This document shows, in pieces, positions 3,126 through 50,673 of a stretch of DNA of 64,000 bases. The notes beneath the pieces are model-generated. The model saw nothing but the letters and a program-made list of their open reading frames with translations. It did no database searches and was not told the origin of the DNA. Each line of letters begins with the position of its first letter. Position 1 is the stretch's first letter. Location of the stretch: assembly GCA_963758155.1 (NCBI GenBank), contig CAVWUP010000007.1:12823-76822 (forward strand), in the 5' to 3' direction. Origin of the DNA: an uncultured delta proteobacterium. GTDB lineage: Bacteria; Myxococcota_A; Polyangia; Fen-1088. The position numbers and the translations under genes are program-made.

Positions 3126-3159
3126 CGGCAGGCACGTGAGCCCGCTGGACGAAAAACGC

Positions 3160-5783: not shown

Positions 5784-5825
5784 GCACTTGCAGTTTCGAT
5801 CAACCCATTCGCATTACCAACAACA

Positions 5826-7585: not shown

Positions 7586-7660
7586 AGCGGGCGGCTCGAC
7601 CGGTGGCACGCGACGCGGTCACAAATTGGCGCCCACGTTCCTGCCAGGCCGAGCCCATGT

Positions 7661-8212
7661 TCAGGCCAGACCAGCGACCCATCGATCAACTGCTGCCAAG
7701 GTCTCCGAGGGGTTGGCATCTCGTGTCCCCGTCATGTTCATCACCACGTTCCGATCGCGAAGCTCCGCCTCCAATTCTTCGATGAAGACACCTGTCCCGG
7801 GAGTGACGCCGTTTGACCAGGTCTCCTCGACCCCGCAGGCGGGCGAGCCATTCTTGCCGATAACTCCTACCACCGTAACCCCAGACTGCTGGTATTGCTG
7901 AATCTCGTCCACTAACTCCGCTGCAATCCGGCGACACGCAGCGCGGCCTGGATACTTCTGGAGCACTCCGCGAATATCTATCTTCTCCCGGGAGAGCCCG
8001 AGAATTCGCAACTCCGCGCAGGGCATCTGTACGATTCCTATCCCACGCTCCATCAACCCGGCAATGAGTTCGGTTATGGCGCTGGGACGTTCTGCGGCGC
8101 CAGCTACTCTCGCATTTTGGTTGATCGCACAGTGCGGGACCAGGATGACCCTTCTGCTGCGGCAGTCATCAGTAGCTCGACCTGCCAGCAGTCTTTTCAA
8201 GAACTCTCTCAT
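7661..8212 (-). CDS. conserved hypothetical, DUF523-like (possible Fe-S protein)
   Basis: ILVPHCAINQNARV and GKNGSPACG motifs recalled as typical of DUF523, the TudS-like family. Weak, from memory. Confidence 0.4.
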   Translation of the reverse strand: MREFLKRLLAGRATDDCRSRRVILVPHCAINQNARVAGAAERPSAITELIAGLMERGIGIVQMPCAELRILGLSREKIDIRGVLQKYPGRAACRRIAAELVDEIQQYQQSGVTVVGVIGKNGSPACGVEETWSNGVTPGTGVFIEELEAELRDRNVVMNMTGTRDANPSETLAAVDRWVAGLA

Positions 8213-8215
8213 CGT

Positions 8216-8866
8216 TCACGACCTCTCTGATTGCACCGTGCGATGCTTGTGAGGAGAACCGGTTCGCCTGGTCCGGTGCCTCAGGCTATCGAGAAACAGG
8301 AAATCGGCCCCCACTACTACGAGACGATCATCGAGCTCGTCCTGCGCTCGGAGGCTCGCCGCGTTCTCGGACGCTGCACGCCCGAGGAGCTCTATTCGAC
8401 CAAGCGGGATCTGATCGAGCGCGAAATCCGGGAGGGTCTGCGCGCCAGCGCCCAACAGAAAGCTGGCGATCAGCACGGCCAGGACCAGCAGCGTGATCAC
8501 CACGTAGAACCGATCGCGCTCCGCGATGAAGAAGCCGACCGACAGGGCCACCCTCAGCGCGGGTGTGGCAATGAGCACCAGGATGCCCAGCTCGATGATC
8601 GCGTATGACTTGCCGACGACGGCCGCCCGAAGGATCTCGCCTGGCGCGGTGGGGAAGTGACCCGGGCTTCCTGGCGGCGCAAAGGCAAGCAGGGCGCCCA
8701 GACCGTGCGGCAACACCGAGGCGTAGCCGGTCTGGCCCGTGCGGGCCATCTGGACCACTCCAGCCACGATGAGGGCCGTTCCCAGCAACACGCCGACGCG
8801 CAGGACGTAGCTCACCAGCAGTTCCATGCGTCTGGCCGTGATTCCGCTGGCGGAGTCTTCAGTCAT
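8216..8866 (-). CDS. DUF1634-like membrane protein (TauE partner); C-terminal third doubtful
   Basis: 3-4 TM helices in the first ~140 aa. ATGA overlap with the TauE stop. The tail overlaps an SPFH-like fragment on the + strand. Confidence 0.55.
   Translation of the reverse strand: MTEDSASGITARRMELLVSYVLRVGVLLGTALIVAGVVQMARTGQTGYASVLPHGLGALLAFAPPGSPGHFPTAPGEILRAAVVGKSYAIIELGILVLIATPALRVALSVGFFIAERDRFYVVITLLVLAVLIASFLLGAGAQTLPDFALDQIPLGRIELLGRAASENAASLRAQDELDDRLVVVGADFLFLDSLRHRTRRTGSPHKHRTVQSERS
8290..8470 (+). pseudogene. SPFH/band-7 (HflC/stomatin-like) domain fragment
   Basis: YYETIIELVLRSEARRVLGRCTPEELYSTKRDLIEREIREGL matches the SPFH-domain consensus, then decays. No complete gene. Confidence 0.35.
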
Positions 8867-9750
8867 GGTGCTCCGCCTCTCAGCAGTCCTGCGATCCCGC
8901 TTCGGATCATCTGCGCCGCCACAATCACCAAAACAACCAGAAGCACCCTGTGGATGAAACGGCTGCGCATCCTGCGCAGAAGCCTGGTTCCAATCACGGT
9001 GCCGGCCAACACGCCCAGAGCCACCGGCGCTGCGATGAACGGGTTGATGTCGCCGCGAGCGAAGTACGTGCCCGCGCTGGCCGCCACCGTTACCCCGATC
9101 ATGAAGTTGCTGGTCGTGGTCGATGCCTTGAGCGGCGCGCGCATCAAGCGGTCCATGGCGATCACCTTGAACAGGCCACTGCCGATGCCCAGCAATCCTG
9201 ACACCAGCCCCGCACCCCACATCACCGCAAGTCCCTGCGGGACCCGCGTGACCTGGTACTCGACCTGCCGTCCCAGCGCCGGGTCGAAGTACGAGCCCTG
9301 CAACCGCAGACGCGCCGCCAAGGGACTGCCCGTGCGACTGGGCGGCGTCTCGTCCCCACGCGAGCGGAAGGTCGACCAGCTGGCGTACGCCAGCACCAGC
9401 CCGAGAATCAGCGACAGCAGCGCCACAGGCAACAGGCCGGCCAGCAGCGCCCCGACCACCGCGCCCGTGGTGGTGGCCAGTTCCAGGAACATGGCCAGCC
9501 GCAGGTTGACCATGCGATCGCGAACGTAGGTTGCCGCTGCCCCGCTGGATGTCGCGATCACTGACACCAGGCTTGCCCCCATCGCATACCGAAGATCCAC
9601 GCCTGCAAATAGAGTCAGCGTAGGAATGATGATCAGCCCACCCCCGATCCCGAGCAACGACCCCAGCGCGCCGGCGAGAATACCGGCGGCCAAGACCATG
9701 AGGAAGAATGAGAGAGGCTCCAAGGAAAAACCTGCGGCGAAACCTGACAT
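8863..9750 (-). CDS. TauE/SafE family sulfite/anion exporter (DUF81)
   Basis: Two-fold repeat of 4-TM units with Gly-rich LGIGGGxxxxP and GxGxG motifs. Start at MSGFAAGF. Confidence 0.85.
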
Positions 9751-9753
9751 GAC

Positions 9754-9975
9754 GTGGGAAGCGCAACAATGGGGAAGGCCGCCACCCTTCACAACATCCG
9801 TCGGAACCTGTTCTTCGCCTTCCTCTACAACAGCATCGGCATACCCATGGCCGCTGGCGTGCTCTACCCAGTGTTCGGCCTGTTGCTTTCACCCATGATC
9901 GCAAGCGCCGCCTTGAGCCTCTCGTCAGTCTCGGTCATCGGCAACGCGCTCCGGTTGCGCAAGCTCGCCTTGTGA
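9754..9975 (+). pseudogene. C-terminal fragment of a P1B-type heavy-metal ATPase
   Basis: [56 protein letters not shown] is the conserved last two TM helices of CopA/ZntA-type pumps. No upstream ATPase body. Confidence 0.6.
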
Positions 9976-10031
9976 AGACATCCGGTTTGCCCGGGAACCC
10001 TTTGGCCGCTCTCCGGCTCTCAGTAATCGAG

Positions 10032-10475
10032 ATGTCAGCGAACACGGAACATGCGGTGGGTAATAGCGAGCACCTCGCCATCCTGGTGGGCGCCCCTGAG
10101 CCACGGTTACGGCAAAGGCTCACGTCGGCATTGCGGCTTCAAGGCCACGAAGTCCTGGAAGCGGCGGATGCGCAGGACATGCGCGACCGGCTGGCGGAAC
10201 ACGCCGATCGAACGGACAAACCGCTCGATCTCATCCTGTGCGGGGGTCTTTTTGCGGAGAAGGACGATCCGGAACTGGCTCAGCGCCTGACCTCCCAGAG
10301 AGTCACGCGTGCCTTGGTCCTAATCCCGGCCGGCGGGTTCCTGTCCACGGCCGCGCGGGCGCAGCGTCTGGGGGCCAACGCTGTCATGGGAGAGCTGCCG
10401 GTCGTCGAGGATCTGTGGGAGATCTTGAAGAAAGCGGCAGGCGGCCCGGAATCTTCGTCTGGAGGCCAGGCTTGA
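10032..10475 (+). CDS. receiver-like domain protein (degenerate response regulator)
   Basis: LAILVGAPE...LDLILC...K receiver-like pattern. The acidic pocket is partly missing. Confidence 0.45.
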   Translation: MSANTEHAVGNSEHLAILVGAPEPRLRQRLTSALRLQGHEVLEAADAQDMRDRLAEHADRTDKPLDLILCGGLFAEKDDPELAQRLTSQRVTRALVLIPAGGFLSTAARAQRLGANAVMGELPVVEDLWEILKKAAGGPESSSGGQA

Positions 10476-10516
10476 GTCCTCAAGCCGCCGTCAGCCAAGT
10501 CAGTGTCGTTCTGCGC

Positions 10517-11506
10517 TCATGACAACCATCCAAGGACGATCGCGGCGAGCGTTGCGCCACCGAGAGCGAACCAAAGCGCGACACCCTGGAAAAGTGGTCT
10601 AACGCCGATGGCTCGCAAAGCCGGGCGCGAGAGGCCGAGCCCAATCAGGAACAGCGTGACCGAAAGCAAGCGATGCGCTGCAACCGAGACGAGATGGCCG
10701 ACGTCATGAACGGCAGGAACGAAGGTCACAATGGCGGCGACCGCCAAGAAACCTGCGATGAACCACGGCCGCTTCGGCTTGTCAGTCGCCTGCGCGTCGG
10801 CAGGGCTCTGGCGGGCACGGTACGTCGCGACCGCGAAGGTGACGGGCACGATCCAGAGCGCCCGGGTGAGCTTGGTGGCGGTCGCAACCTCCAAAGCGCG
10901 TTCCCCGTACTGCGTCGCCGCGCCCACGACCGAGCTGGTGTCGTGAATAGCCAGCGCGCACCACAGCCCAAACGAATCCTGCCCGAGGTGAAGGGCGCGT
11001 CCGATCGGCGGGAAGATGAGAAGAGCGACTGCATTGAGAACGAAGACCGTTGCGAGTGCCATCGAGACGTCGTGGTCCTTGGCTCGAATCGCCGGCGCGA
11101 CCGCTGCGATGGCACTGCCACCACAAATCGCCGTCCCGACGGTCACGAGCAGAGAGACATCCCGAGCGACACCCAGACGGCGGCCAAGGAGGGTTCCGAG
11201 AATCATCGCCGCACCGATTCCGAGAACCGTGTAGCCCAAACCGTGCAACCCCGCCCGCGCAACAACGGCGAGGTTCATCCCAGCCCCCAGCCCAACCACC
11301 GACCAAGTCAGAGTCCGACGAGCGAATACGCGCGCGTGCGCTGGCCACGGATTGCCGACCGTGAGCGACAACGCGACCCCGAGCCCGAGTGCCACTCCTG
11401 GCGAAAACCACGGCAGCAGAGTCGCGATGGCAACCAGGGGAACCAGAACCTTTGCGACATTCGGAATGGATTGCGACGGCGAAGGCGGCGGGGCAGGTCT
11501 GACCAT
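10517..11506 (-). CDS. YeiH/UPF0324 family putative sulfate exporter
   Basis: ICGGSAIAAVAP signature and about 10 TM helices. Start at MVRPA. Confidence 0.8.
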   Translation of the reverse strand: MVRPAPPPSPSQSIPNVAKVLVPLVAIATLLPWFSPGVALGLGVALSLTVGNPWPAHARVFARRTLTWSVVGLGAGMNLAVVARAGLHGLGYTVLGIGAAMILGTLLGRRLGVARDVSLLVTVGTAICGGSAIAAVAPAIRAKDHDVSMALATVFVLNAVALLIFPPIGRALHLGQDSFGLWCALAIHDTSSVVGAATQYGERALEVATATKLTRALWIVPVTFAVATYRARQSPADAQATDKPKRPWFIAGFLAVAAIVTFVPAVHDVGHLVSVAAHRLLSVTLFLIGLGLSRPALRAIGVRPLFQGVALWFALGGATLAAIVLGWLS

Positions 11507-25411: not shown

Positions 25412-25923
25412 AGAATCCTCACGCCGTTGCACTAGGCCGGCTCGGCGGTGCCAAGGGGGGGCCGGCCCGCGCCAGGGTGTTGAGCGCGAGACGCCGCCGG
25501 GAGATCGCACACAAGGCAGGGCTGGCTCGGGCGCAGACTCTCTCGCGTCGGGAGCGAAAAGCGCTGGCGCTGCGCGCGGCTACGGCTCGATGGGCAACCC
25601 GATTGCCGATTCTGACAGCCGCGGAGGCGCCGGAGACGGTCCGACGACTCCTCAAGAGCTACGACGTGGCAGCTCTGAAATGGGCGGAGTCAGATCATCG
25701 GTACGCGATCGTCCGCGAGATTCTCGTGAGGGGTGACGATCAAGCCGCGCGCTGGCTCCAAAAAGTTCTTCGCCGGGTTGAAATACGTGAGCTGGTTCGG
25801 CGATATCGTGGCGCCGGTTGCAACGAGCCCGAGCGGCAGAGGCTGCGCAAGGAATTTCGACTCACTGTGGACGACATTCCAAGTCGTCCCTACCTGGGTT
25901 TCAAGTGGCCCGCTCACGCATGA
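25408..25923 (+). CDS. putative antitoxin / DNA-binding partner of the AbiEii-like toxin
   Basis: Arg-rich N-terminus. ATGA overlaps on both sides. Confidence 0.45.
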   Translation: MKNPHAVALGRLGGAKGGPARARVLSARRRREIAHKAGLARAQTLSRRERKALALRAATARWATRLPILTAAEAPETVRRLLKSYDVAALKWAESDHRYAIVREILVRGDDQAARWLQKVLRRVEIRELVRRYRGAGCNEPERQRLRKEFRLTVDDIPSRPYLGFKWPAHA

Positions 25924-26570
25924 ACCAGCAGGTTCTCGATCCGGACAAGGCGCGCGTGATCCGCCTGCAAGCAGATCTCGTGCGAGCGGAGGGTTTCTTC
26001 CTGGCCGGTGGCGTCGGGCTCGCCTTGCGCCTCGGGCACAGGCTCTCCGCTGATCTCGACTGGTTCACGCCGCGCCGTTTTGATACTGCCGTCCTCCAGA
26101 AACGCATCGAGCAGCTCGCGGAGAGGCCCACGCAAATCCTCCGCCAAGGGCGGCACACCGTGCGGGTGTACTACGGGATGCTCGAAACCAGTTTCATCAG
26201 CTATGAGCAGGTGCCCGCCAAGCCGGAGATCATGAAGGTGGCTGGAACGGAGATTCCTGTGGCCGACATCGAGATCATCGCTGCGATGAAGGCGGCGGCG
26301 GTCCACGATCGGGGGGCAAAGCGCGACTTCATCGACATCCACGCGATCTGCGCGCAACCGGGTTGGTCGGTCGGACGGTTCATCGAGCACGCCGCGCGGC
26401 TGCTGCCGTTCCAGCCCGAACAGGTTGGGCGCGCTCTCACCTACTTCGTCGACGCCGAAAGGGATCCGATGCCAGCTGGTTGCACGATCACGTGGGAAAG
26501 GGCCAAGTCGAATCTCACCCTCGGCGTGCGCCAATGGGAGCAAGGACCTCGGGGGAAACGCCGCCCGTAG
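25920..26570 (+). CDS. nucleotidyltransferase, AbiEii/AbiGii toxin family
   Basis: FLAGGVGLALRLGHRLSADLDWF matches the GGTAL...R.S.DLDF NTase motif. Confidence 0.75.
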   Translation: MNQQVLDPDKARVIRLQADLVRAEGFFLAGGVGLALRLGHRLSADLDWFTPRRFDTAVLQKRIEQLAERPTQILRQGRHTVRVYYGMLETSFISYEQVPAKPEIMKVAGTEIPVADIEIIAAMKAAAVHDRGAKRDFIDIHAICAQPGWSVGRFIEHAARLLPFQPEQVGRALTYFVDAERDPMPAGCTITWERAKSNLTLGVRQWEQGPRGKRRP

Positions 26571-26863
26571 TGTCCCCGAAGCCCACGCCCAATGCGCGCG
26601 CGGATGCGCTCCACCGCCATCCCGATCCGCCTCGCGGCCTCCGGCGTGACAAGCCGGATGTGCTGGAGTGCATTGCCGCACCATGATGCGATTCCAATTG
26701 CAGATTCCAATTGCACCCTTACATGACTCCCGTCCAGTCTCTACAGTGCCGTCAGTGTGCCGTGACTCTGCACACCTGGATGTAGCTCGATGCAACTAGA
26801 TGCACTCAGAGCCAAGAATGATTCACCAACAACCACGGGGACTTGACGGCCAAGGTCGCGTCC

Positions 26864-28252
26864 TCACTCGGTTTTTGGGTTTTCAGTCCTGCAAGTTTCA
26901 AGTCCCGTCCACCCCGCAAGACCCCTCGGGAGAAATCCCGAGGGGTTTTGTGTATTTGGAGCGCTGACGTCAACCTCGGTGGAGCCCTCACCAGAGCCAT
27001 TTTCGTTGGCTGGCAGCACAGTGGCAGCAGATTTCTTCGCATCCGGTGCTGACGGCTGCAACCGCGTGCTATCCGGCGTGGTGGCCTTGGGTTCGAAGGC
27101 CAGTCTGTCGATCTCGCTGCGCAGGTAGCCGGGCAGGAGGTGCCCGTACACCTCAGTGGTGATCCTGGGGTCGCTGTGTCGCAGGATCTTCTGCACCGCC
27201 GCCGGGTTCGCGCCCGCCATCAGCAACAGCGATCCAGTCGTGTGGCGAAGATCGTGGAATCGAATCTGACGAACCTGGGCTTTGGGCCACAGCTTCATCC
27301 GGTGGGTCGGGCAATGACGAAGCTCCGCGTCCGCCGCCGCTTCCTTGTGAGCGCAACCCTTCTTGCGGCAGACGTGCTGATAGCCGGTGGCGAAGCCCGC
27401 GTGGATGAGGGCACGTCGGAGCACATCCTCCAGCGGGGTGTGCCGCGACAACATCGAACCATCCGGAGCCGGGAAGACCAGATCTGACCGCGATGCCGCG
27501 ATGGCGGCCCGCAGGTAGGGGACAAGCTCGGCCGCGATCGGGATCGATTCGGCATGGCCGCCTTTGGTGGTGTCGTGGTCGTAGGACCGCACCACGGTGA
27601 TTAGGCCGGTCGAGAAGTCGACGTCCGATTTGAGCAGGCCCAGCAGTTCTCCCTTCCTGAGCCCCGTGTAGATCGCCGTCGCGAACAGCGGTCGCCACTT
27701 CGACGGCACGGCCCGCAGCACGGGCGGCACCTCGTGAAGCCGCAGGAACTCGGGCTTTCCCTTCGGCACGCGGCGCCGCCGGACATCCTCGACCGGATTC
27801 GCGCCCTGCCACTTGCCGGCCCGCCTCGCGCAGTTGAAGGCGGTGAGCAGGAAACGGCGCAGATGGTTCAGCGTTTGGGGCGCTAGCTTGTCCGCCCTTT
27901 CTTGTAGGAAAGCCTCGATCTTCCCTGAGGTCACCTCGACCAGAAGCAGATCGGCGATCCCAGGCGAAGCGAAATGCTTGCCGAGTGTGGAAACGTTCCG
28001 ATCGTGCGAGGGCGATCCGACCGAGTACGTCTGGAGCCACCAGGTCAGGAGTTCGCCCAGCCTGCCACCACCATCCTCGGGTGGCAGCGTCTCCAGCCCC
28101 AGCCGCGCGCGTTCGAAACGGGTTTCGAGTTCGCCGACGAGACGCTTCGCCTCGATCTTCGTGCGGGCAGTGGACGACCTGTCCCGCCACCGGCCGTGCT
28201 GGTCGCGGTAGCGGAGGTACCATCTGCCTCTTTTCACGTACACGGAAGCCAT
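26864..28252 (-). CDS. int: tyrosine-type site-specific integrase
   Basis: N-terminal SAM-like domain, catalytic R...HDLRHT...TTEVYGHL box. The last ~60 aa is low-complexity read-through. Confidence 0.9.
   Translation of the reverse strand: MASVYVKRGRWYLRYRDQHGRWRDRSSTARTKIEAKRLVGELETRFERARLGLETLPPEDGGGRLGELLTWWLQTYSVGSPSHDRNVSTLGKHFASPGIADLLLVEVTSGKIEAFLQERADKLAPQTLNHLRRFLLTAFNCARRAGKWQGANPVEDVRRRRVPKGKPEFLRLHEVPPVLRAVPSKWRPLFATAIYTGLRKGELLGLLKSDVDFSTGLITVVRSYDHDTTKGGHAESIPIAAELVPYLRAAIAASRSDLVFPAPDGSMLSRHTPLEDVLRRALIHAGFATGYQHVCRKKGCAHKEAAADAELRHCPTHRMKLWPKAQVRQIRFHDLRHTTGSLLLMAGANPAAVQKILRHSDPRITTEVYGHLLPGYLRSEIDRLAFEPKATTPDSTRLQPSAPDAKKSAATVLPANENGSGEGSTEVDVSAPNTQNPSGFLPRGLAGWTGLETCRTENPKTE
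26921..26957 (+). terminator. GC hairpin (CCCCTCGGG-agaaat-CCCGAGGGG) followed by TTTTGTGTATTT
   Basis: Read directly. Lies inside the 3' tail of the integrase ORF. Confidence 0.4.
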
Positions 28253-28275
28253 GACGTTCTCGATCCACTCTCCAG

Positions 28276-28521
28276 CTAGCGCGGGTGCCGAATCGTAGCA
28301 GATGCCGCCCGGGGCGCAGGTGAAGAACAACCCGCGGAAACATGCTCCCGGATTGCAGCGGGGTCGAAGCGCACCAACGCGCCCACCCGGATGTGGGGCA
28401 GAAGGCCGCATTCGAGCCGGTGGTACACCCAACTCCGCGACACTTTCAGGTATGCAGCCACCTCGGTCACCGTCCACAAGCCGTCGGACACGGGAACGTC
28501 GTTCGTGTTGATCGTGTTCAT
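28276..28521 (-). CDS. xis: excisionase / AlpA-like HTH protein
   Basis: LWTVTEVAAYLKVSRSWVYHRLECGLLPHIRVG HTH, directly upstream of int. Confidence 0.7.
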   Translation of the reverse strand: MNTINTNDVPVSDGLWTVTEVAAYLKVSRSWVYHRLECGLLPHIRVGALVRFDPAAIREHVSAGCSSPAPRAASATIRHPR

Positions 28522-29458
28522 AGTGATCGCCTCGCAATGACAACTCGCGACTCTCGAAGCCGAAGTCGTAGGTGGGGAAACCGCCAGCGGGGCGGCGTGA
28601 GGCCGCCATCAAGCGCCCAATGGCGCGGACACACCGTTCGAGATCCGACTCGGCCGTCCTCTTGTCGTCGAGGCGGATGGTTCCCGAACGCGCTGCCAGC
28701 GCGGGCAAGGCGCATGCCCAGAACCGCCGGACTCGCGAACGCCGCCAGCGGTTTCCCCGTGCAGCCCACCGCAAGACGACCATGCTCCCGCCCGGTGACC
28801 GCACGTCGCTCGATCCGGGCTACTGCCCGGACGCGCGCGTCGTGATGTCCACCGACCTGAAGGCATCCGGAACCGCAACGTGAACCGTTGCCCAGTACGC
28901 CAGCAGTCCCAGTAGGACTACCGCCGCGGTCAATGCCAGGCATTGGGATCCGAATTGCCGCCAAGTCAGCTCTTTTCGATAATGAGTGTGAGGCATAGTA
29001 AGAGCGAGTCCGGCGACTCCGATACCATGCGCGCCACCCGGGCACATGCAGGAGCACGGCGAGTCCGCCGTGGGCTACAGCTTCTGCGGGCGGGCCGGCA
29101 ACGGCCACACACCCGACTCGCGGTCGGACGCCGGCCCAGACTTCGCCAGGACCAGCGGTCCATACGCGGGCGAGGTTCTGGGGGCCTAGTCGCGCTCCGA
29201 TTCCAAAAAGGAATAGGCAGGGATCGCGGTCGGGCGGCGTGAAGCCGGAGCGCGGGCGCTCCCCGCGGTACAGTCCGACGATGCGCGAATTCATCTGGCC
29301 GCTCGGTCCTTTGGCCGGAGGCTCAGCGGGGCGCATCATAGGTCGGATCGTCCGGGCGGACATCCGTCGCTGACCGGGCTCGCGGATCCGACCGCGCTCC
29401 CCTAGGGCCACCATCTCCCGACTGCGATGCGCAACCGCTCCGCTCTTCCCCTTCAGAA

Positions 29459-29707
29459 TCAGGGCTTGAGCCGCCACACGCCAGGCGAGACCCACTCCAC
29501 GAGCGGATCTCGTTGAACGCACTGCCGGATCTTTGCTTTCCAGTGTGGATTGATTTTCGTCCGTGGGTTGGCCTCCAGCGCGGCGTAGAGCGTGGCAAGA
29601 GGAGCCACGCCGCCGCAGCGTTGGAGCGCACCGCGGACGAGAGTTCGCCAGCTTGGCGAAACCGGCGTCACGTTCGACGTCGATGTTACGGGTTTGGTCG
29701 TGGTCAT
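29459..29707 (-). CDS. small HARE-HTH-like winged-helix protein
   Basis: ...TLYAALEANPRTKINPHWKAKIRQ...VEWVSPGVWRLKP resembles the HARE-HTH C-terminal signature. Confidence 0.35.
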   Translation of the reverse strand: MTTTKPVTSTSNVTPVSPSWRTLVRGALQRCGGVAPLATLYAALEANPRTKINPHWKAKIRQCVQRDPLVEWVSPGVWRLKP

Positions 29708-30167
29708 ATGCGTAGTCGGTTAAGAAACGAGCCCGGTCACGCAAAGGACGAACAGCCCGGAGCACCGCGAGAGCAGCCGAGATACGGCATCCCATAACTA
29801 GTAAATGGCTGTTGCGGGCCATCTGTTACTCCAACGGCTGCCGACCCGCTTGGAAGCGGTCCGTCCGGTGTTCGGCGAACCCGGGGCACGCTGTTGGGCC
29901 ACAACCCGCGTCCCGCCGCGTACCCCACACATGGGCGCCGACCACTCACTCCTTGATCATGCGCCGGCGAGGAGCGTCCGTCGCCGATCACTCGGGAAAC
30001 TCCTCTGCTGGACCCGTACCATGATCCAACATTCCTCTCAAGCGCGCACGTTCGGTGTCACCCGCCGCGTCGCAGGACGAAGCAATGTTCGCGATCCAGA
30101 TTGGCTGGGGAACGATCTGCTATGCAACGGCGGGGCGCGAGCACCGTCCGCCGTAACGGCGGTGAGT

Positions 30168-31052
30168 CTAGGAAGCCTCGACGACGTACTTGGCTTCGAG
30201 GTCACCTGCGTATTCTCGCAGGGCAGCCGGACACTGGGCATCGCTCCGGAGATAAGCGAGCACGTCCTCGATGGCGACAGCGGCCACGCGCTCGCGCGTG
30301 CTTGGATGAAGCGCAGCAAGCGCTACAGTCAGCTTGTCCCAGAGCCGGGTGTTCGCACGGGGGAGGAGAAACACAAGCTTCGAGCCGGGCAGCAGGATTA
30401 TGTGCCACACGTTGCGCAGAAACTGGTATGCGCGGAAGAACTCGGGTTCCTGAAGCATTCGTCCGTCGACATGGCCGCTCAAGGGCCGACGGTAGATGAC
30501 CTCGAGTTTGCGCCGATGCTTTTCGTCGGTGCTGGCCCTCCCAAAGTCGGCTTCGGACAACTTCACCTCACACATCACCACGGTTCCGTCGGCGAGTTGC
30601 CACTTGGCATCCAGATTCGTGCCTTCGTCCTTGTCTGGAATCGACTCGGGCTCCCACGATTCGAGCGGTGGCGCTTGCCCAAGTGCGCGAAGGAGTGAAG
30701 AACTCCCCGCTTTTGGGCCGCCGAAGAATGGGAAGAATAGATTGAACGCGAATGCCTGTGACGAATTCAGATGGTGGAAGTAGCGGTGCAACCGGACCTC
30801 GCCATTGGCGGCCAGGTGGGCTTTGACGAGGGGTTGTGCCAGGCCGAGCAGATTCGCCCACTTCTTGGCACGTGGCAGCACGTGTTCCTTGGGGACAGCT
30901 CTCCCGCGGTACTGAAACGTCCCCGGTTCGCGAATGCGAAGCACCGAGTACTTATACCTGATGAGGTGCGCGAGGAGCCGTGCTCGATATTCCATGAATG
31001 CCTGTGCGTCTTCGTGCCTCTGAATCTGATCCCGACCTCGGATCATCTTCAC
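30168..31052 (-). CDS. hypothetical protein, possible PD-(D/E)xK nuclease fold; low-GC gene
   Basis: GC clearly below neighbours. VVMCEVKLSEADFG motif is D/ExK-like. Confidence 0.45.
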   Translation of the reverse strand: MKMIRGRDQIQRHEDAQAFMEYRARLLAHLIRYKYSVLRIREPGTFQYRGRAVPKEHVLPRAKKWANLLGLAQPLVKAHLAANGEVRLHRYFHHLNSSQAFAFNLFFPFFGGPKAGSSSLLRALGQAPPLESWEPESIPDKDEGTNLDAKWQLADGTVVMCEVKLSEADFGRASTDEKHRRKLEVIYRRPLSGHVDGRMLQEPEFFRAYQFLRNVWHIILLPGSKLVFLLPRANTRLWDKLTVALAALHPSTRERVAAVAIEDVLAYLRSDAQCPAALREYAGDLEAKYVVEAS

Positions 31053-43489: not shown

Positions 43490-43610
43490 CGTTGCCCTCC
43501 TACTCGTCTAATGTCCGGAGCGACCTTCTTCGTTACACCTCCACTGGATGCGCACAGCTTGTTGCCAAAACGTGCCCACCGAGGCCAGTATCATGTAGAA
43601 GGTCACCATC

Positions 43611-44522
43611 ATGGCCACGGACGTGAACACCCTTAGCAGGCTCTTGCAGGCGCTCGCAGAGCGCCGGTGGGAGGACGCCGTGACGCTTGGAGCGGCGCTC
43701 GCCAAGCGCGAGGAGCGCCAGGGGCACTTCCAGGCCGCGCGACGGCTTCGCGGCGCGCTGGGTGAGACCGGCAACGGTGACGCGGGCGAAGTACCTTGGC
43801 GCGCCACCGGCGGGGCGCCATCCGCGCTACGAGCGCTGCTTCCGGTCTCGCCGGTCGAGCTTGAACAGGTCGTGCTCCCACGCCACCTGCGCGAACAGCT
43901 CGAAGAACTCGCCCTCGAGTGGCGACTCCACGAGCAGCTTGAGCAGGCCGGCATGGGCAGGCGGCGCAAGCTGCTGTTCGTCGGCCCGCCAGGCTGCGGA
44001 AAAACACTCACCGCACGTGCGCTCGGCGGGATGACTTCCTTGCCGATCCTTGTGGTCCGGTTCGACGCCATCGTGGGGGCGTACCTGGGACAGACCGCCG
44101 CCCAGCTTCGGGAGGTCTTCGCCTACGCCGAGGCGATTCCGTCGGTGTTGGTGCTGGACGAGATCGATGCCCTTGCCCAACGTCGCGGCAACCCGCGCGA
44201 GGTGGGCGAACTCGACCGGGTGGTCATTTCGCTGATGCAGGAGCTTGAGCACGCGTCGCCCCGCGGCTTCGTGGTGGCCAGTTCGAACTTGCCTAGACTC
44301 CTTGACGAGGCCCTTTGGCGCAGGTTCGACCTGGTGCTGTCATTCCCGGCGGCGGCCCGGCGGGACTTGGTCGCCTTCGCTCGGAGCCGCCTCCGCACGT
44401 GGTCGCTCCGCCCGCCGCGCAATCTGCCCGCTATTCTCAAGGGCGCGAACTCCTACGCTGACGTTGACCGCGTGCTAGGCGACCTACGCCGGCGCACGAT
44501 CTTGCGCCAGCACATGGAGTGA
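43611..44522 (+). CDS. AAA+ ATPase
   Basis: Walker A GPPGCGKT, Walker B VLVLDEID, and sensor/arginine-finger region. Confidence 0.85.
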   Translation: MATDVNTLSRLLQALAERRWEDAVTLGAALAKREERQGHFQAARRLRGALGETGNGDAGEVPWRATGGAPSALRALLPVSPVELEQVVLPRHLREQLEELALEWRLHEQLEQAGMGRRRKLLFVGPPGCGKTLTARALGGMTSLPILVVRFDAIVGAYLGQTAAQLREVFAYAEAIPSVLVLDEIDALAQRRGNPREVGELDRVVISLMQELEHASPRGFVVASSNLPRLLDEALWRRFDLVLSFPAAARRDLVAFARSRLRTWSLRPPRNLPAILKGANSYADVDRVLGDLRRRTILRQHME

Positions 44523-44523
44523 G

Positions 44524-46917
44524 ATGGCCGAGATCAGGGCGCCTCGAACCTTTTTCCTGAACGAAGCCCACGAGCACGCGCGGGGCGAGAAGAAGGGTGG
44601 AGGCGGGGTTCCCAAGTACGCCTCGATCAACTGGCAAGCGAAGGGCGAGCGCATCGCCAAATCCCTGAGGGCAGCGCGAACCGCCGTTCGGCAGTCGCCG
44701 GACCCGGTTCGGGAAACTCGCTTCTTCCTGCTTTCGAAGGCCGAGGCCAAGATCGAGAAGTTCTCCACGGACAAACGGAAGTCCAAGGACGGTCGCGTGG
44801 TCGAGGAGATCCACCCGGCCGGTAAGCACGCTGGGATTTTCCAACGGCTGGGGCTCGACCTTCTTGGGGTGACAGACCGGGGAGAAGCCTTGGTGCACGC
44901 CGAGGCCGACAGACTAGATCGCCTGCTCGCAACCGCGGATGCTCTGGGCTCGGCGGGCCCGCGCGAACAAGCCCGATGGGCGCTTCTGTCGGACTTTCAG
45001 CCCGCGCCGCCCGAGACGCGCGCCGACCCCGAGTGGATCTCGTCCATCCCGCTGAAGACAACAGTGGAGGCCATCGTCGAGATTCAACCGCTCCTCCTGC
45101 GCACGGAGGTTGAGGCCGTGGCCAAAGCTCTGCGCGATTCTATCGCCGGCGATGGCCGCCAGGCAGTCCTCGCAGCCGGGCGGGACTTCTCGGGCCGCAG
45201 TTGGTTCCGCATGCGGCTCTTGCGGCAGACCGTGGACGCGTTTGCCAGGCAGTTCCAGTCAATCCAGTCGATCCACCCCCCACTACGGTCGCCCCTGGCT
45301 GCGGTGAACACCAAGGCGCCCGCGGTCGCAGGCGGCGTCGCGGTTCCACCGATCACAGACGCCAATCTTCCGGCGGTCGCCATCGTGGACGCGGGCATTC
45401 CGCAACAACACCCAGTCCTTGCCCGCTATCGGCGAGGACAATTCCTGCATGCGGAAGCAGGACAACCAGGAACCGACGATCACGCCTCGCGAGTCGCGTC
45501 GCGCATCGTTTTTGGGGACGTCGATGCGAGTAGCGCGGGGTATGTGCCGCCACCCGGCCGGTGTCAGTTCCTGGACGTGGTGGTCCCCGCTTTCCCGGGG
45601 AGCATTGGCAAAATCCCCACCATTGATCTCGACAACAAGGCTATCCAGGATGTCATCGGCGACGTCACGCGCAACTACCCCGACGTGCGCGTGTTCGACT
45701 TCAGCTTCGGAAGCCATCAACCCCTGTCGCGGTTGACTGCCGTGCAAAGGCGCGAGGAACTCATTGGGGTCCAGGATCTCGACAACTTCATCTTCGCGAA
45801 CGACGTGCTTGTCGTCGTGGCGGCCGGAAACTCGCCGCGCGGAGCTGTTCCAAACCAGCAGTACCCGGGGCATGTCGACGATCCAGATTGGGGTCTCGGT
45901 GCCTGGGCGTGCGGGTTCAACACGCTGGTCATTGGTTCCTACGTGGGGCAGCCCCACTCAGACGGCCTGGCCGGACACACCGGGTGGCCAAGCCCGTTCA
46001 CCCGCATCGGCCCAGGGTTGGCGGAAGCGCCGGTCCCCAGCTTCTCTGCGAGCGGCGGCGATTCGACGAGGAACTACGGCTACCAAAGCCCGCTGGGGGT
46101 CTGGACCTGCGGACGTACCGGGTTGTGGGAGGATGCCGTTGGAACCTCGTTCGCCGCGCCGATTGTCGCCCGCGAAGCCGCGATCCTTCTCCAGCAACTC
46201 CAGCGGCACTGCGCACCGGGAATCCCGTGCTTCGCAGCGACAGCGAGGGCATTCTTGCGGCTGGTCGCACGGCGATCTGGCGACCAGCCGTTTCCGCCCC
46301 GTGTCCGGAAACTCGCTGACCTGACGCTCGGACACGGACTGCCCACCGCCGAGCGGCTTGCCCGCCCTCGCGCATCGAGCGCAGTGCTCGTTTGGCAGGG
46401 GACTCTGGAAGATCCTGCGTCGATCGCGCGGGTGCGTGTGCCCGTGCCGCTCGCCTGGGTGGCAGCCGCGCAGCACCCCAGCCTGCGGGTCGTCTGTGCC
46501 TGGAATACACCGGTGAGTGCGGCCGCGCCTGATGTCTGGGCCAGCCGCAAGGTGGTCATGCACCTCAAGCCCACGCTCGGAGCGGAGGCGATCCGGGGCA
46601 AGGGCAAGTCCCACAGGAGCTACCCGATCACCGACAGGGTGTGGCGGCTTGATCGGGATGAGGAGGGCGAACCACGGGCCACGCCACCGTCCGACGAGTG
46701 GGTGGTAGAGTTATTCTACGAGGACGTCGGACCCTATCCCGCCACCCTCCAGATCTCGCCTCAGCAGCAAGTTTCGCTGGTGATGGAGCTGTTCGACGAT
46801 TCGAGCACCCCGATCAGTCCCCAGGAGGAATTGCAGAAGCTGCCCATCGCGGAAACGATGATTCGCCTCGCGGGCGTGGCGCGCGAGGTCCAGGTGCCGG
46901 TGAAGATCCGCGTGTAG
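44524..46917 (+). CDS. subtilisin-like (S8) serine peptidase
   Basis: AIVDAGI (Asp), HASRVASRI (His), GTSFAAPIVA (Ser). 1-nt gap after the AAA+ gene. Confidence 0.9.
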   Translation: MAEIRAPRTFFLNEAHEHARGEKKGGGGVPKYASINWQAKGERIAKSLRAARTAVRQSPDPVRETRFFLLSKAEAKIEKFSTDKRKSKDGRVVEEIHPAGKHAGIFQRLGLDLLGVTDRGEALVHAEADRLDRLLATADALGSAGPREQARWALLSDFQPAPPETRADPEWISSIPLKTTVEAIVEIQPLLLRTEVEAVAKALRDSIAGDGRQAVLAAGRDFSGRSWFRMRLLRQTVDAFARQFQSIQSIHPPLRSPLAAVNTKAPAVAGGVAVPPITDANLPAVAIVDAGIPQQHPVLARYRRGQFLHAEAGQPGTDDHASRVASRIVFGDVDASSAGYVPPPGRCQFLDVVVPAFPGSIGKIPTIDLDNKAIQDVIGDVTRNYPDVRVFDFSFGSHQPLSRLTAVQRREELIGVQDLDNFIFANDVLVVVAAGNSPRGAVPNQQYPGHVDDPDWGLGAWACGFNTLVIGSYVGQPHSDGLAGHTGWPSPFTRIGPGLAEAPVPSFSASGGDSTRNYGYQSPLGVWTCGRTGLWEDAVGTSFAAPIVAREAAILLQQLQRHCAPGIPCFAATARAFLRLVARRSGDQPFPPRVRKLADLTLGHGLPTAERLARPRASSAVLVWQGTLEDPASIARVRVPVPLAWVAAAQHPSLRVVCAWNTPVSAAAPDVWASRKVVMHLKPTLGAEAIRGKGKSHRSYPITDRVWRLDRDEEGEPRATPPSDEWVVELFYEDVGPYPATLQISPQQQVSLVMELFDDSSTPISPQEELQKLPIAETMIRLAGVAREVQVPVKIRV

Positions 46918-47085
46918 TCGCCACCCGCGTACGACGGTGCCTCAGAATGACCCGCTCCTCATTTGATAGCTGACCGCCCCGTCGAGCCGCGGAGGTAGAA
47001 GACCTGCGTATCTGTGCGTAGTTGGGTTGTTTGATGGGTATTTGATCCGGACGCCGGCAACGATCACGCGAGGGCACCGCGTGAA

Positions 47086-47967
47086 CTACGCCTTCCGGTC
47101 GTGGTTCATGGTCAGCAGCGAGAAGGCCGCCAGGGTCACCACGAAGGTGAAACGGGCTTCCTCGTAAGAGACGTGGACCGCCGGGTAGCCGGCGTGACGC
47201 CCGAACTGGGTGAAGTCGTTCAGATTCTTCAACAGCGCACTGAGGACATCCGTCTTCTCGATGCTCTCGGGGAAGGCCCGGCCGAGAAGGAGTTCGAAGC
47301 CCTTCTTCTTCTCTCCCGCCCCCTCATACTTCGCCGCGCTTTCGAGCGCTTGATAGCAGGTCGTCAGGACCAACTTGGGATCGCCACCCGTTCGCATCGC
47401 GTTCTCGGCGTCCCGGAGTAGCTTCAGGGCCGCGGCAAGGTTGGGATCAGCGGCCATGTCACCCGCTTGCACCTCGAAAACCTCGACCTCCTTCCAGCCG
47501 AGCGTCTTCAGGCATGTTCGCCATGGGTCGCGATGGACGTTCCAGTGAATCTGCCGACTGGCGGTCTGACTGTCCGAAACGAACTTCGGCGCATCCCAGG
47601 CTTCGCCTGTCTTGTGAACGAAATGATGAACCACCGCAACATCCAGGTTGAAGATCGCAGGGCCACCTCCACGACGCTGATTCTCGATTGCAGCGATGAT
47701 CTCCCGGGAAAACGGAACCCGCACCTGAAATATCGAGCCTGTCGCCGAGATAGTCTGCGGGTATACCGGCTGAAATGATCGCGGCCAAAGTGTCTTGTTG
47801 CCGAGCTTTCCCTCCAAGGCGATGGCGGTGACCTCGACGGGCGGATCGACCGGTTGGTTGGAATTGGTCGGCAAGACCACCTTGACGGGGATGGCCCCGC
47901 TCCAAGCCGGCGGGGGATCGCAGGACGGGGCCTCGCTTGGGATCTCTATCTCGATGCTGATACTCAT
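47086..47967 (-). CDS. hypothetical protein
   Basis: 293 aa with coding-like composition. No recognisable family. Confidence 0.45.
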   Translation of the reverse strand: MSISIEIEIPSEAPSCDPPPAWSGAIPVKVVLPTNSNQPVDPPVEVTAIALEGKLGNKTLWPRSFQPVYPQTISATGSIFQVRVPFSREIIAAIENQRRGGGPAIFNLDVAVVHHFVHKTGEAWDAPKFVSDSQTASRQIHWNVHRDPWRTCLKTLGWKEVEVFEVQAGDMAADPNLAAALKLLRDAENAMRTGGDPKLVLTTCYQALESAAKYEGAGEKKKGFELLLGRAFPESIEKTDVLSALLKNLNDFTQFGRHAGYPAVHVSYEEARFTFVVTLAAFSLLTMNHDRKA

Positions 47968-48421
47968 GACGGAACCTCCTCGCGCACACTGGGAGTGTCT
48001 CATCTCAGATGACGGGGTGCAGCTGCGAAGTATTCAATGTCTGGATTGGCCAAGATGAGCCTGACCAGGAGTCCGCCTGCGCGCGTGATGGAACGAGCGG
48101 GAAGTTCACAGATACCGCTCGACCATGTAGCCCACGTAGGATCCATGCTCTCTACGCTGGCCCTGGGCTATCCGCCTCGCGCCTGCATCGCGATGCGTCT
48201 CCCCGCCAGGTGGGCACCTGGCCCCGCCAACCCGCACATACCGCCGCCCGTGTCAGCCCCTTGGGATACACTGGCTCTCCTCGGAGGCAGCCAGACAGTG
48301 GTCGACTCGGATCTACAAAACAGCGCCATTCGAAAGCGGGTCCGTCTCGGTGGACAGCATGTCGTCTTGATCAAAGGCTTCGCCCGCACCGTTTGCCGCA
48401 GTCCGGCTAGCCGAGGCAGAG

Positions 48422-49144
48422 ATGGAGCATAGGAAGGAGAACCTTCACGCGGGTCATCGGGCACGCTTGCGAAGGCGCTTTCTCGATGAGGGGCTCGACG
48501 CCTTCGAGGACCACCAGGTCCTCGAGCTGCTCCTGTTCTTCGCCATTCCCCGTCGGGACACCAACGAACTCGCCCATCTCCTGCTGCGCCGCTACGGCTC
48601 CTTCTCTGCCGTGCTCGATGCCGACCCCGTCGATTTTGCGCAGACTGAGGGGGTTGGCGAGGCTGCGGCGACGCTGCTGTCGCTCGTGCCCGCCCTGACT
48701 CGGCGGTACTCGATGGATCGCACGCGCCAAGAGCGGCAAACGCTGAACACGAGCGAGCGGGCAGCCGAGTTCCTCGTGCCCCTTATGGCTGGCAGGAGCG
48801 AGGAGGTCTTCTACATCGTCTGCCTCGATACCCAGTGCCGGGTGATCGTCCCTGCTCTCGTTGTTGAGGGGCTGCCTGATCGCGCCCACATTGAGCCGCG
48901 CCAGGCGGTCGAGGTGGCTTTGCGCCACAAGGCACACTCGGTGATCCTGGCGCACAACCACCCCACTGGGCAGGCCAAGCCCACGACGGCCGATCACCGG
49001 GCCACCCAAACGCTCGTCAGCGCATTCGGCGCAATTGCCATCGTCGTCCGGGACCACATCATCGTGGCGGGGGAAGATTGGTACAGCTTCTCTCGTGCAG
49101 GCGACATGCCAGCTGCAAAACCAACGGGAGCACTGAACCCATGA
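48422..49144 (+). CDS. radC: RadC-like JAB domain protein (UPF0758)
   Basis: HNHPTGQAKPTTADHRAT JAMM motif with the RadC N-terminal HhH-like region. Confidence 0.85.
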   Translation: MEHRKENLHAGHRARLRRRFLDEGLDAFEDHQVLELLLFFAIPRRDTNELAHLLLRRYGSFSAVLDADPVDFAQTEGVGEAAATLLSLVPALTRRYSMDRTRQERQTLNTSERAAEFLVPLMAGRSEEVFYIVCLDTQCRVIVPALVVEGLPDRAHIEPRQAVEVALRHKAHSVILAHNHPTGQAKPTTADHRATQTLVSAFGAIAIVVRDHIIVAGEDWYSFSRAGDMPAAKPTGALNP

Positions 49145-50673
49145 AGCTCACGGACGCGCAGAAACGGGCCGTCGCGCACGCGAAGGCCAACTTGCAGCTC
49201 ATTGCTTGCGCCGGCTCGGGCAAGACGGAGGTCGTGGCCCGTTTCGTGGCGAACCTCCTCAACCCGAGGACCAAGCCGAGGGTCGTACCAGCGAACATCA
49301 TAGCGTTCACGTTCACCGAGAAGGCGGCTGCTGAGCTGAAAGAACGAATCGTGACGAGGTGTCGGGAGGAGAATGGGGATCAACCGGGACTCGCCGAACT
49401 CTATGTCGGCACCATCCACGCCTTCTGCCTGGATCTTCTCAAGACCGAAGTGCCGCGCTTCCTCAAGTTCGAGGTGCTGAATGAGGTCCAGCAGGCTCTC
49501 TTTGTCGACCGGCACAGCAAGCAGAGCGGTCTCACGACGACCACCGACCTGACAGGTCGAGTTCTTCAGCGCTACAAGGACACCGATCTCTACGTTGCCG
49601 CGCTGTCGATCCTCCGCGAGGCCCAGCTCGACGACGAAGTTCTGCGCGGCAACTCGGTCGTCACAGGTCTTAGCGCCTACAAGGCACTGCTGACCAAGGA
49701 AGACTCGTTCGATTACTCGTCGATCCTCGGCGAGGCTGTTTGCGCACTTCGAGACGATGCGGGACTGCGCGATCGGATGCGCGACCGCGTCCGCTACGTC
49801 ATCGTGGACGAGTACCAGGACGTGAACCCGATCCAGGAATGCATCGTCAAGCTGCTGCACGACTTGGGTGCGTATGTCTGCGTGGTGGGCGATGACGACC
49901 AGACCATCTACCAGTGGCGAGGCAGCGACGTCCGCAACATCCTCAACTTCGAGAAGCGCTACCCAAAGCCGAAGCAGATCCGGCTTGAGGAGAATTTCCG
50001 TTCCAGCGAGGGGATCGTCGAGACCGCACGGGACTTCATCAGCAAAAACGCCGAACGCCTTCCCAAGGCGATGAAACCAACGGATGTTCAGCCCTACGAG
50101 GCCGGCGACATCATCGCGCTCGCCTTGGCCGATCCGGACGCGGAGGCGCAGCACATCGCCGCGAGCATCAAGGCTCTTCGCGGTGTCGCCTTCAAGGAGG
50201 ACGACGCCAAGCGGGGCTTGGCTTGGTCGGATATGGCCATCCTCTTGCGAAGCGTCCGCAACAGCGCCGATCCGATCACGCGTGCGCTCTCGGCGGCAGG
50301 CATCCCTTTTGTCATCGGCGGGATGAACGATCTCTTTTCTCGGGCCGAGGCCGAGGCGGCGCGGCAGCTCTTCTACTTCATTCGCGGACGCATCGACGAG
50401 GCTGCACTGATCGCTGCCTGGAAAGCGGCGGCGCTCGGTGTCTCGAAGCGGGCAATCGACCAGGCAGTCGCGGGCGCCAAGGCCACCAAAGAAGCTCTCG
50501 ATGGAACGGACGAGAACCGCTGGAGCTATTACTCCCTGCAACGGCAGTTCCTCACCTTCCTCGAGGATTTGGAGCTGCGCGAGGAGTCGGTCCCGGACGG
50601 TCGCGGCGAGGTTGTCTTCTACAACCTCGGCAAGTTCAGTCAGCTCATCTCGGACTTCGAGACCATCCACTAA
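49141..50673 (+). pseudogene. UvrD/Rep-type SF1 helicase, C-terminally truncated
   Basis: IACAGSGKTEV (Walker A), VIVDEYQD, GDDDQTIYQWRG. Ends after about 510 aa, exactly where a transposase fragment begins. Confidence 0.7.

Follow-up and report, generated by a model that had tools for sequence, protein, structure and literature searches.

A divergent IetAS-type ATPase and subtilase gene pair on a mobile cassette from an uncultured Polyangia-like bacterium

The IetAS family and the assignment of the pair

IetAS is a pair of genes encoding an AAA+ ATPase (IetA) and an S8 family serine peptidase (IetS), which Gao et al. are said to have included among anti-phage systems in 2020; PADLOC names it IetAS, and NCBIfam IteA/IteS. 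As summarized in a later paper, ietAS was first identified as a plasmid-stabilizing toxin-antitoxin system on the Agrobacterium plasmid pTiC58, in which the toxin is the serine protease IetS and the antitoxin the ATPase IetA (Yamamoto 2009, ref. 61 of PMC13069673). E. coli IetAS homologs protect against phage (10.1101/2022.08.21.504612; PMC13069673), and ietAS of Bacillus cereus acts by abortive infection and turns toxic upon expression of the SPbeta gene yosG (10.1101/2022.08.27.505566). Protease activity is required for the defense and an ietA mutant could not be built, while how IetAS acts on phage "remains unknown" (PMC13069673), and no structure or mechanism of IetAS was found in a search of the literature. 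A variant, ietHAS (Liu-DS4), includes an essential SNF2-family helicase, IetH (PMC13069673). Here, we describe a pair of this type on a stretch of 64 kb from contig CAVWUP010000007.1 of an uncultured delta proteobacterium, called the window below. We find that this pair is intact and belongs, as a divergent member, to the IetAS family, which was known before; it is not a new kind of system.

The initial annotation of the window, made from the DNA letters, described a 303-amino-acid (aa) AAA+ gene and a 797-aa S8 peptidase gene 1 nucleotide (nt) apart, and the open reading frames (ORFs) agree with it to the nucleotide. Both ietA and ietS start with ATG. The TGA stop of ietA (44520-44522) is followed by a single G and then by the ietS ATG, and a GGAG is found inside the end of ietA, 5 nt 5' of this ATG. 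The 1-nt gap and the GGAG indicate that the two genes are probably translationally coupled (coordinates of all features are given in Table 1). The layout was compared with that of 16 related loci, taken from metagenomes and from genomes of Phycisphaerae, Pirellulaceae, Planctomycetota, Fuerstiella, Granulosicoccaceae, Limisphaerales, and Myxococcus. In 16 of 16, an AAA ORF of about 300 aa lies directly upstream of the S8 gene with a spacing of a few nt, and therefore the pairing is not due to chance. Both genes are under purifying selection: the ratios of nonsynonymous to synonymous substitution rates (dN/dS; Nei-Gojobori estimates, window against four relatives) range from 0.006 to 0.11 for ietA and from 0.11 to 0.39 for the four parts of ietS, the fastest-evolving of these being the linker and the C-terminal domain.

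The best PADLOC match of the ATPase is the IetA model PDLC02196 (E=1.3e-61, residues 7-301 of 303). Three further IetA models match it at E<=1.6e-38, and the next unrelated family, TRIP13, follows at E=2.6e-13. For the protease, the best match is the IetS model PDLC02197 (E=1.2e-30, residues 108-578), and five other IetS models match as well. The best NCBIfam matches are "anti-phage ATPase IteA" and "S8 family anti-phage peptidase IteS". Thus, in both collections the two proteins are placed with IetA and IetS, and not with housekeeping proteases.

The comparison was extended to plasmid-borne pairs. The window IetA shares 35% identity over 272 residues with the AAA partner of an S8 peptidase encoded by an Agrobacterium plasmid (BLASTP, E=4e-46). 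Since a BLASTP of the window IetS against Agrobacterium IetS was not significant (E=0.068), a profile-profile comparison was needed. The hhalign alignment of 53 window-type IetS sequences with five plasmid IetS sequences reached a probability of 99.8 and E=1.7e-29 over residues 277-770, a span made up of the S8 domain and the C-terminal domain. IetS sequences diverge much faster than IetA sequences. An IetA-like gene was found at E<1e-15 in 649 plasmid records, 390 of them conjugative, and an S8 peptidase gene lies directly 3' of it in all five records that were opened (Agrobacterium, Klebsiella, Nitrosospira, Rhizobium, and Pseudomonas). The likeness to ietAS, to which the initial annotation had pointed, is confirmed by the PADLOC search, the NCBIfam best matches, the IetA identity, and the hhalign result, and the pair very probably belongs to the IetAS family.

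The window pair and the known IetAS systems share a common plan: the AAA+ gene comes first, is tightly coupled to the next gene, and is followed by a gene for a cytoplasmic S8 peptidase of about 800 aa. IetA is homologous over nearly its full length and IetS over its S8 and C-terminal domains, and the window pair, like the plasmid pairs, lies on a mobile element. On the other hand, the window IetA is shorter than the plasmid proteins (303 against 328-346 aa) and is devoid of their C-terminal extension, and the hosts differ: known IetAS systems come from Enterobacteria, Rhizobiales, and Bacilli, whereas the relatives of the window pair come from Myxococcota, Planctomycetota, Binatota, and similar environmental lineages. 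The ietHAS variant has the same IetA/IetS core, and a helicase gene, of the UvrD type, is also found in the wider neighborhood of the window pair. However, no SNF2 helicase is present, the upstream neighbor of the window operon being the divergent 139-aa ORF of an E1 operon, and the UvrD-like gene, the only helicase gene nearby, lies 2 kb downstream, past a convergent 305-aa ORF and RadC, and is missing from the other copies of the cassette described below.

Domains of IetA and IetS

IetA carries the motifs of a classical-clade AAA+ ATPase, namely a Walker A motif (G125-T132, with K131 and T132), a Walker B motif (D183/E184), a sensor-1 residue (N226), and arginine fingers (R237/R238), the latter being the two arginines of the second region of homology. 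Pore loop 1 (Y158-L159-G160) is of the aromatic-hydrophobic-Gly type. G125, K131, G160, D183, E184, N226, R237, and R238 are invariant in 16 IetA sequences including those of the Agrobacterium and Klebsiella plasmids. A sequence search of the PDB returned p97/Cdc48 D2 domains as the closest solved structures (E=1e-40); apart from such generic p97 and subtilase matches, this search retrieved no IetA-specific or IetS-like structure. The helical N-terminal region of IetA (aa 1-100) had no Pfam match at E<=10. Judged by its motifs, IetA is a threading-type ATPase with an intact pore loop.

The initial annotation reported an intact Asp/His/Ser triad in the protease and a long non-catalytic N-terminal region, and both are found. 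H320, S542, and the oxyanion residue N436 are invariant in an alignment of 53 homologs, and D289 is at least 90% conserved. As judged by motif conservation, both IetA and IetS should thus be catalytically competent. The non-catalytic region corresponds to aa 1-282 and is confidently folded in the AlphaFold model. Neither a signal peptide nor a transmembrane segment is present in IetS (maximum Kyte-Doolittle mean over 19 residues, 1.43), indicating a cytoplasmic protease. Neither its N-terminal nor its C-terminal domain has a Pfam match at E<=10.

The AlphaFold2 model of IetS, built from the 53-sequence alignment, has a mean predicted local distance difference test score (pLDDT) of 89.8 and a predicted template modeling score of 0.91. 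It begins with a tail that contains a short strand (residues 10-12); a helix (37-56) comes next, then, at about 60-160 and 180-251, two ferredoxin-like beta-alpha-beta-beta-alpha-beta subdomains, and a strand (255-258). The tail bears the motif PRTFFLNExHE, in which L12, N13, E14, H16, and E17 are invariant, and a Gly run at 24-27, while a conserved S246/H251/P253 motif closes the domain. In the full-length model the tail is well defined (pLDDT 77-84 for residues 1-20). When the N-terminal domain was modeled alone, the pLDDT of residues 1-26 fell below 50 and the strand 255-258 was gone. The prediction is therefore that both regions, the tail and the domain end, are packed onto the catalytic or the C-terminal part.

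Foldseek matches of the full IetS model in the PDB are subtilases, with E-values down to 2e-17. The top match is ProN-Tk-SP (3afg_B), and further ones are KP-43, unautoprocessed pro-subtilisin E (3whi), EpiP (3t41), and PCSK9, so that the best matches are subtilase structures that include the propeptide or a C-terminal beta domain. The template modeling score over the target (TMt) was 0.70-0.73 for pro-subtilisin E (355 residues) and about 0.71 for mature subtilisins (275 residues). As the TMt is about equal despite the greater length of pro-subtilisin E, its 77-residue propeptide must also superpose on IetS. These scores lead us to infer that, in the model, the second ferredoxin-like subdomain is placed like a subtilisin propeptide, which suggests a zymogen. 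Taken in isolation, the N-terminal domain had no significant Foldseek match in the PDB and retrieved tandem ferredoxin-like folds only; its comparison with the PCSK9 prodomain gave a probability of 0.97 and a TMt of 0.63 with a non-significant E-value of 0.17.

The predicted IetS structure thus resembles pro-subtilisin E, ProN-Tk-SP, EpiP, and PCSK9 in having a ferredoxin-like, propeptide-type subdomain against the catalytic domain, and Tk-SP and KP-43 in having a C-terminal beta domain after it. These enzymes, however, are secreted proteins with a propeptide that serves as a chaperone of folding and is removed by cleavage, whereas IetS is cytoplasmic and has an ATPase partner. The IetS model also goes beyond pro-subtilisins by an extra ferredoxin-like subdomain, a long helix, and the conserved N-terminal tail.

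The N-terminal domain of IetS (260 residues) was searched with phmmer against 1.84 billion representative proteins, which returned 181 clusters at E<=0.001. It was found only in relatives of about 795 aa: full-length matches measure 777-807 aa, and the shorter ones look like fragments at contig ends. In full-length matches, and in fragments that keep the N-terminus, the match begins within a few residues of the protein start. The pair thus belongs to a distinct IetAS subfamily that is marked by this domain. The first 50 residues or so are nonetheless alike in window-type and plasmid IetS, with a hydrophobic/His strand, a basic Gly-rich loop, a proline, and a long helix, and the PADLOC model PDLC02197 extends back to residue 108, inside the N-terminal domain.

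Relatives are patchily distributed, in Polyangia, Binatus, Planctomycetota, Phycisphaerae, Myxococcus, and others. Sequences identical to both window proteins are present in NCBI, where the ATPase is annotated "ATP-binding protein". A search of a phage collection returned only two weak matches to the S8 core, indicating that the family is not phage-borne, and a megablast of the locus against a plasmid collection gave no match. On the Planctomyces plasmid pPL62-2 (positions 2308-4863 of that locus), an IetS-like S8 peptidase gene lies directly after parA/parB and has no annotated AAA partner; it could encode an orphan or a differently regulated relative.

One relative, locus L016, is an intragenic mosaic when its positions 5500-7833 are compared with positions 44524-46917 of the window. 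The two IetA proteins differ by one amino acid, the synonymous substitution rate (dS) between their genes being 0.26. Within ietS, dS is 0.10 for the N-terminal domain and about 1.1 for the S8 and C-terminal domains, and DNA identity drops from 98% to 70-80% from about position 45,230 (IetS residue 240 or so) onward. The junction lies just upstream of the linker, at the boundary between the N-terminal domain and the protease. The low dS on one side and the high dS on the other indicate that a single recombination exchanged the protease and the C-terminal part while ietA and the N-terminal domain were kept together. This natural recombinant fits the idea that IetA may work with the N-terminal domain of IetS, without proving it.

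The cassette and its surroundings

The limits of the mobile unit were determined by BLASTN of the whole window against the loci of its closest relatives. Each locus gave a single matching block, and the rest of the window had no match in them. In the copies that are 97.9% identical to the window, the block begins 29 nt 5' of the ietA ATG and ends 3 nt 3' of the ietS stop codon. The pair is hence a discrete, self-contained cassette of 3.3 kb that moves between unrelated contexts. No direct or inverted repeats flank it.

A short motif upstream of ietA is kept in all contexts, even in relatives of about 70% DNA identity, and the sequence 5' of its TTGCCAA is unrelated between contexts, as seen when the equivalent regions of L001, L003, L016, and L025 are compared. 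The motif is followed by GAAGG, which resembles a ribosome-binding site (43598-43602). The spacing of its TTGCCA and TATCAT hexamers, 21 nt, is non-canonical for sigma-70, and a scan for consensus sigma-70 promoters and terminators, which found no promoter, was uninformative. From its conservation, this motif is probably the promoter of the cassette itself.

The contexts of the copies are diverse. In L025, L027, and L028, a small element has inserted next to ftsJ and has the cassette at its end; it carries an integrase gene, an FtsK_SpoIIIE gene, a 59-aa ORF, and several further ORFs without known function. The FtsK_SpoIIIE gene adjoins the cassette in L025 and also in L016. An integrase gene precedes the cassette in L001 and L002, and in the Candidatus Binatus copies the cassette lies between housekeeping genes. 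It is a clean example of a probable defense or addiction unit that keeps exact boundaries as it moves from one mobile element to another, unrelated one.

In the window itself, the surroundings are those of a mobile element or of conflict genes. The region 25818-31052, with its unusually long integrase, is probably one end of an integrated element, and no tRNA gene was found within the 64 kb. The Replic_Relax and FtsK/HerA-like genes could be the transfer machinery of this element, comparable in kind to the FtsK_SpoIIIE genes of L025 and L016, and the SbcCD-like pair could form another conflict system. No GajA-like partner was seen beside the UvrD-type helicase gene, the best PADLOC matches of which are GajB models.

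The genes between 39836 and 43466, on the reverse strand, look like a bacterial ubiquitin-like (Ubl) conjugation operon; the gap of about 630 nt between its 91-aa ORF and its JAB gene holds no convincing ORF. The adjacency of the pair to a Ubl operon on a mobile element, pointed out in the initial annotation, is real in the window, where the operon lies directly upstream on the other strand, but it is not a conserved feature of the pair, since a 97.9% identical copy occurs in an unrelated context. We considered a functional link between the cassette and the Ubl/E1/JAB operon and rejected it, because 98% identical copies of the cassette occur apart from that operon and the operon proteins have no homolog in any of the related loci. 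In the L026 locus, a different Ubl operon (HTH_3, Multi_ubiq, Prok-E2_E, and ThiF; 8455-11458, reverse strand) lies about 3 kb from the 97.9% identical cassette, and the proteins of the window E1 operon had no tblastn match in this locus at E<1e-5. Two unrelated E1 operons thus adjoin the same cassette.

Table 1. Coordinates of the pair, its cassette, and the neighboring genes (positions in the window; strand + is forward)
Feature	Position	Strand	Remarks
ietA	43611-44522	+	Classical-clade AAA+ ATPase, 303 aa; Pfam AAA PF00004, E=1.3e-26
ietS	44524-46917	+	S8 peptidase, 797 aa
ietS, N-terminal domain	44524-45297	+	aa 1-258; from AlphaFold models and invariant columns
ietS, linker	45298-45369	+	aa 259-282; pLDDT 49-62, lowest column conservation, dN/dS 0.32-0.39
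ietS, S8 catalytic domain	45370-46368	+	aa 283-615; Pfam Peptidase_S8 PF00082, E=7.1e-14, residues 284-560
ietS, C-terminal beta-sandwich domain, low-confidence tail, and stop codon	46369-46917	+	Domain at aa ~619-760; AlphaFold strands 619-758
ietS, codon of D289	45388-45390	+	Catalytic
ietS, codon of H320	45481-45483	+	Catalytic
ietS, codon of N436	45829-45831	+	Catalytic (oxyanion)
ietS, codon of S542	46147-46149	+	Catalytic
Two-gene cassette (DNA homology block)	43582-46920	+	97.9% identity with L025, L026, and L027; 85.9% with L016
Block shared with L001	43558-46915		80.2% DNA identity (BLASTN)
Block shared with L003	43562-46905		70.3% DNA identity (BLASTN)
Block shared with L018	43562-46917		71.6% DNA identity (BLASTN)
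Upstream motif, TTGCCAA-N17-CAGTATCAT	43562-43594	+	Kept in all contexts
139-aa ORF	43466-43047	-	No match; E1 operon, divergent from ietA
ThiF-type E1	43032-41758	-	E=4.9e-30; in PADLOC, weak CBASS E1-E2 matches only
91-aa ORF	41753-41478	-	Weak ubiquitin-like YukD match, E=0.0018
JAB-domain protein	40843-39836	-	E=2.2e-5
FtsK/HerA-like ATPase, 541 aa	39455-37830	-	PADLOC mad8, E=1.9e-14
Replic_Relax (relaxase-like) protein	37540-36692	-	E=1e-15
535-aa calcineurin-like phosphoesterase (Metallophos) and 1181-aa AAA_27/SMC-like ATPase, overlapping	36801-31686	-	SbcCD-like; weak PADLOC mad3 match, E=4e-7
REase-ARP PD-(D/E)XK nuclease	31052-30168	-	E=9e-35
Tyrosine recombinase, 646 aa	28804-26864	-	Unusually long; integrase of the window
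AbiEii-family nucleotidyltransferase toxin	25818-26570	+	E=7e-14
305-aa ORF, convergent on ietS	47086-48003	-	No significant match; HEPN, E=0.053, non-significant
RadC	48422-49144	+	E=5e-32
UvrD-type helicase	49078-50673	+	Overlaps RadC; best PADLOC matches GajB models, E=2e-51
IS66-like ORFs	~51.8-53.6 kb	+

Proposed function and alternative readings

We consider it likely that the pair is a toxin-antitoxin or defense module of the IetAS type, belonging to a divergent subfamily and carried as cargo by an integrated element in a Polyangia-like (Myxococcota) genome. By analogy with other members, from which the roles are taken, the toxin-antitoxin logic probably applies to it as well. The initial annotation had seen a fit with an abortive-infection-type effector in both the pairing and its context. 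The pairing of an ATPase with a protease does fit. The mobile-element setting agrees just as well with the plasmid-stabilizing toxin-antitoxin role in which the family was discovered, and the Ubl operon is not conserved with the cassette. An abortive-infection role is reported for tested IetAS homologs and may extend to this pair. Phage defense and element addiction are both documented for the family, and either may be the role under selection in this host.

How such a module could work is suggested, tentatively, by the predicted structure. IetS would be made as a latent cytoplasmic zymogen, with the propeptide-like subdomain of its N-terminal domain sitting on the catalytic domain and its conserved N-terminal tail packed against the rest of the protein. 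A hexameric, substrate-threading IetA would act as the antitoxin, keeping IetS harmless as long as ATP and IetA are present. Maintenance of the lock would depend on ATP, and the simplest way for IetA to achieve it would be to engage the tail or the N-terminal domain of IetS. Once IetA is lost, inhibited, or diverted, by a phage protein or by loss of the element, IetS would become active, cleave cellular proteins, and halt growth, so that the infection would be aborted or the element-free cells killed. A more specific version, which we regard as doubtful, is that the N-terminal domain of IetS and IetA form a co-inherited lock-and-sensor unit while the protease and the C-terminal part are an exchangeable effector; the pore loops of IetA would grip the tail, with its PRTFFLNExHE motif and Gly run, and interference by a phage would free the propeptide-like plug.

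In type III CBASS (cyclic oligonucleotide-based antiphage signaling system), the AAA+ protein Trip13/Pch2 remodels HORMA and is the off-switch. IetA could be comparable to it, as a classical-type AAA+ protein encoded beside a defense effector and acting as a negative regulator. However, no HORMA or CD-NTase gene is found among the neighbors in the window, the client here would be the protease itself, and the IetA match is stronger than the TRIP13 match by about 48 orders of magnitude in E-value.

Several observations weigh against our interpretation. The NCBIfam equivalog cut-offs are widely missed, with 188 bits against 510 for IteA and 92 bits against 900 for IteS. As a control, the plasmid pairs of Agrobacterium (199 and 41 bits) and Klebsiella (201 and 89 bits) also fall below them, indicating that these thresholds delimit a narrow subgroup and not the IetAS family. 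The N-terminal domain of IetS is not aligned with that of plasmid IetS, neither by hhalign nor by phmmer, which finds the subfamily of about 795 aa only, and its regulation may therefore differ from that of the studied systems. What supports the propeptide-like assignment is a predicted model, together with fold matches of the isolated domain that are weak (E=0.17). Among 112 neighboring ORFs of 12 homologous loci, only a few generic PADLOC matches were obtained (kinase-type PD-T4-6, mad3, mad6, mad8, and MkoA), and some copies, those of Binatus, lie among housekeeping genes, so that enrichment in defense islands is not demonstrated for the subfamily. Finally, the pair and its subfamily are known here from sequence and predicted structure alone.

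The scarcity of defense genes beside the homologs also bears on a possible but less probable reading, according to which the pair is mainly an addiction module that stabilizes the integrated element by post-segregational killing, with the same parts and a different selected function. In the account given by the citing paper, the family was discovered as a toxin-antitoxin system of plasmid stability and incompatibility (ref. 61 of PMC13069673). The abundance of IetA-like genes on plasmids, with the conjugative records counted above, points in the same direction, as does the presence of the cassette as cargo of integrase/FtsK-type elements in the window and in its close relatives. Yet other IetAS homologs protect against phages, one of them being triggered by a specific phage protein (10.1101/2022.08.27.505566; PMC13069673), and an addiction role would be pointless for those copies that sit amid housekeeping genes, in chromosomal contexts that look stable. 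The addiction and phage-defense roles are not mutually exclusive.

The motifs of IetA raise another idea, which we judge improbable: IetA and IetS could constitute a two-component ATP-dependent protease, like PAN/proteasome or ClpX/ClpP, in which IetA would be an activator and specificity factor, and not an inhibitor, feeding unfolded substrates, possibly phage proteins, to IetS. IetA does belong to the classical unfoldase clade, its closest solved structures are p97/Cdc48, it matches PAN and FtsH models, its pore loop 1 is intact, and the two genes are probably coupled in translation. However, subtilases are monomeric open-cleft enzymes with no gated chamber, and the top fold matches of IetS are monomeric subtilases; IetS also possesses a large regulatory N-terminal domain of its own. 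Moreover, the genetics of other IetAS systems point to the ATPase as an antitoxin, the loss of which is lethal (PMC13069673). Last, that the pair would be a housekeeping or secretion protease with its chaperone and no conflict function, like mycosin and EccA of the type VII secretion system, is very hard to sustain: the weak NCBIfam matches to mycosin (E=1.2e-5; 24.6 bits, cut-off 279) and EccA (E=5.6e-11; 41.7 bits, cut-off 467) fall far short of the thresholds and are much weaker than those to IetA and IetS, IetS has neither signal peptide nor membrane anchor, no ESX gene is found among the window neighbors, and, in spite of some homologs among housekeeping genes, 98% identical copies of the cassette have moved into unrelated contexts, and its distribution is patchy.

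The interpretation we favor, a divergent IetAS-type toxin-antitoxin or defense module, would extend the IetAS family into poorly studied phyla, namely Myxococcota (Polyangia), Planctomycetota, and Binatota. The locus itself would be labeled automatically by a standard defense finder. Beyond this label, the pair offers three testable handles on the IetAS mechanism: the propeptide-like plug, the conserved N-terminal tail as a possible grip point for the ATPase, and the natural recombinant. If true, the proposal that the N-terminal domain of IetS and IetA act together as lock and sensor would be the first mechanistic model for IetAS and would show an AAA+ unfoldase in the role of antitoxin to a zymogen.

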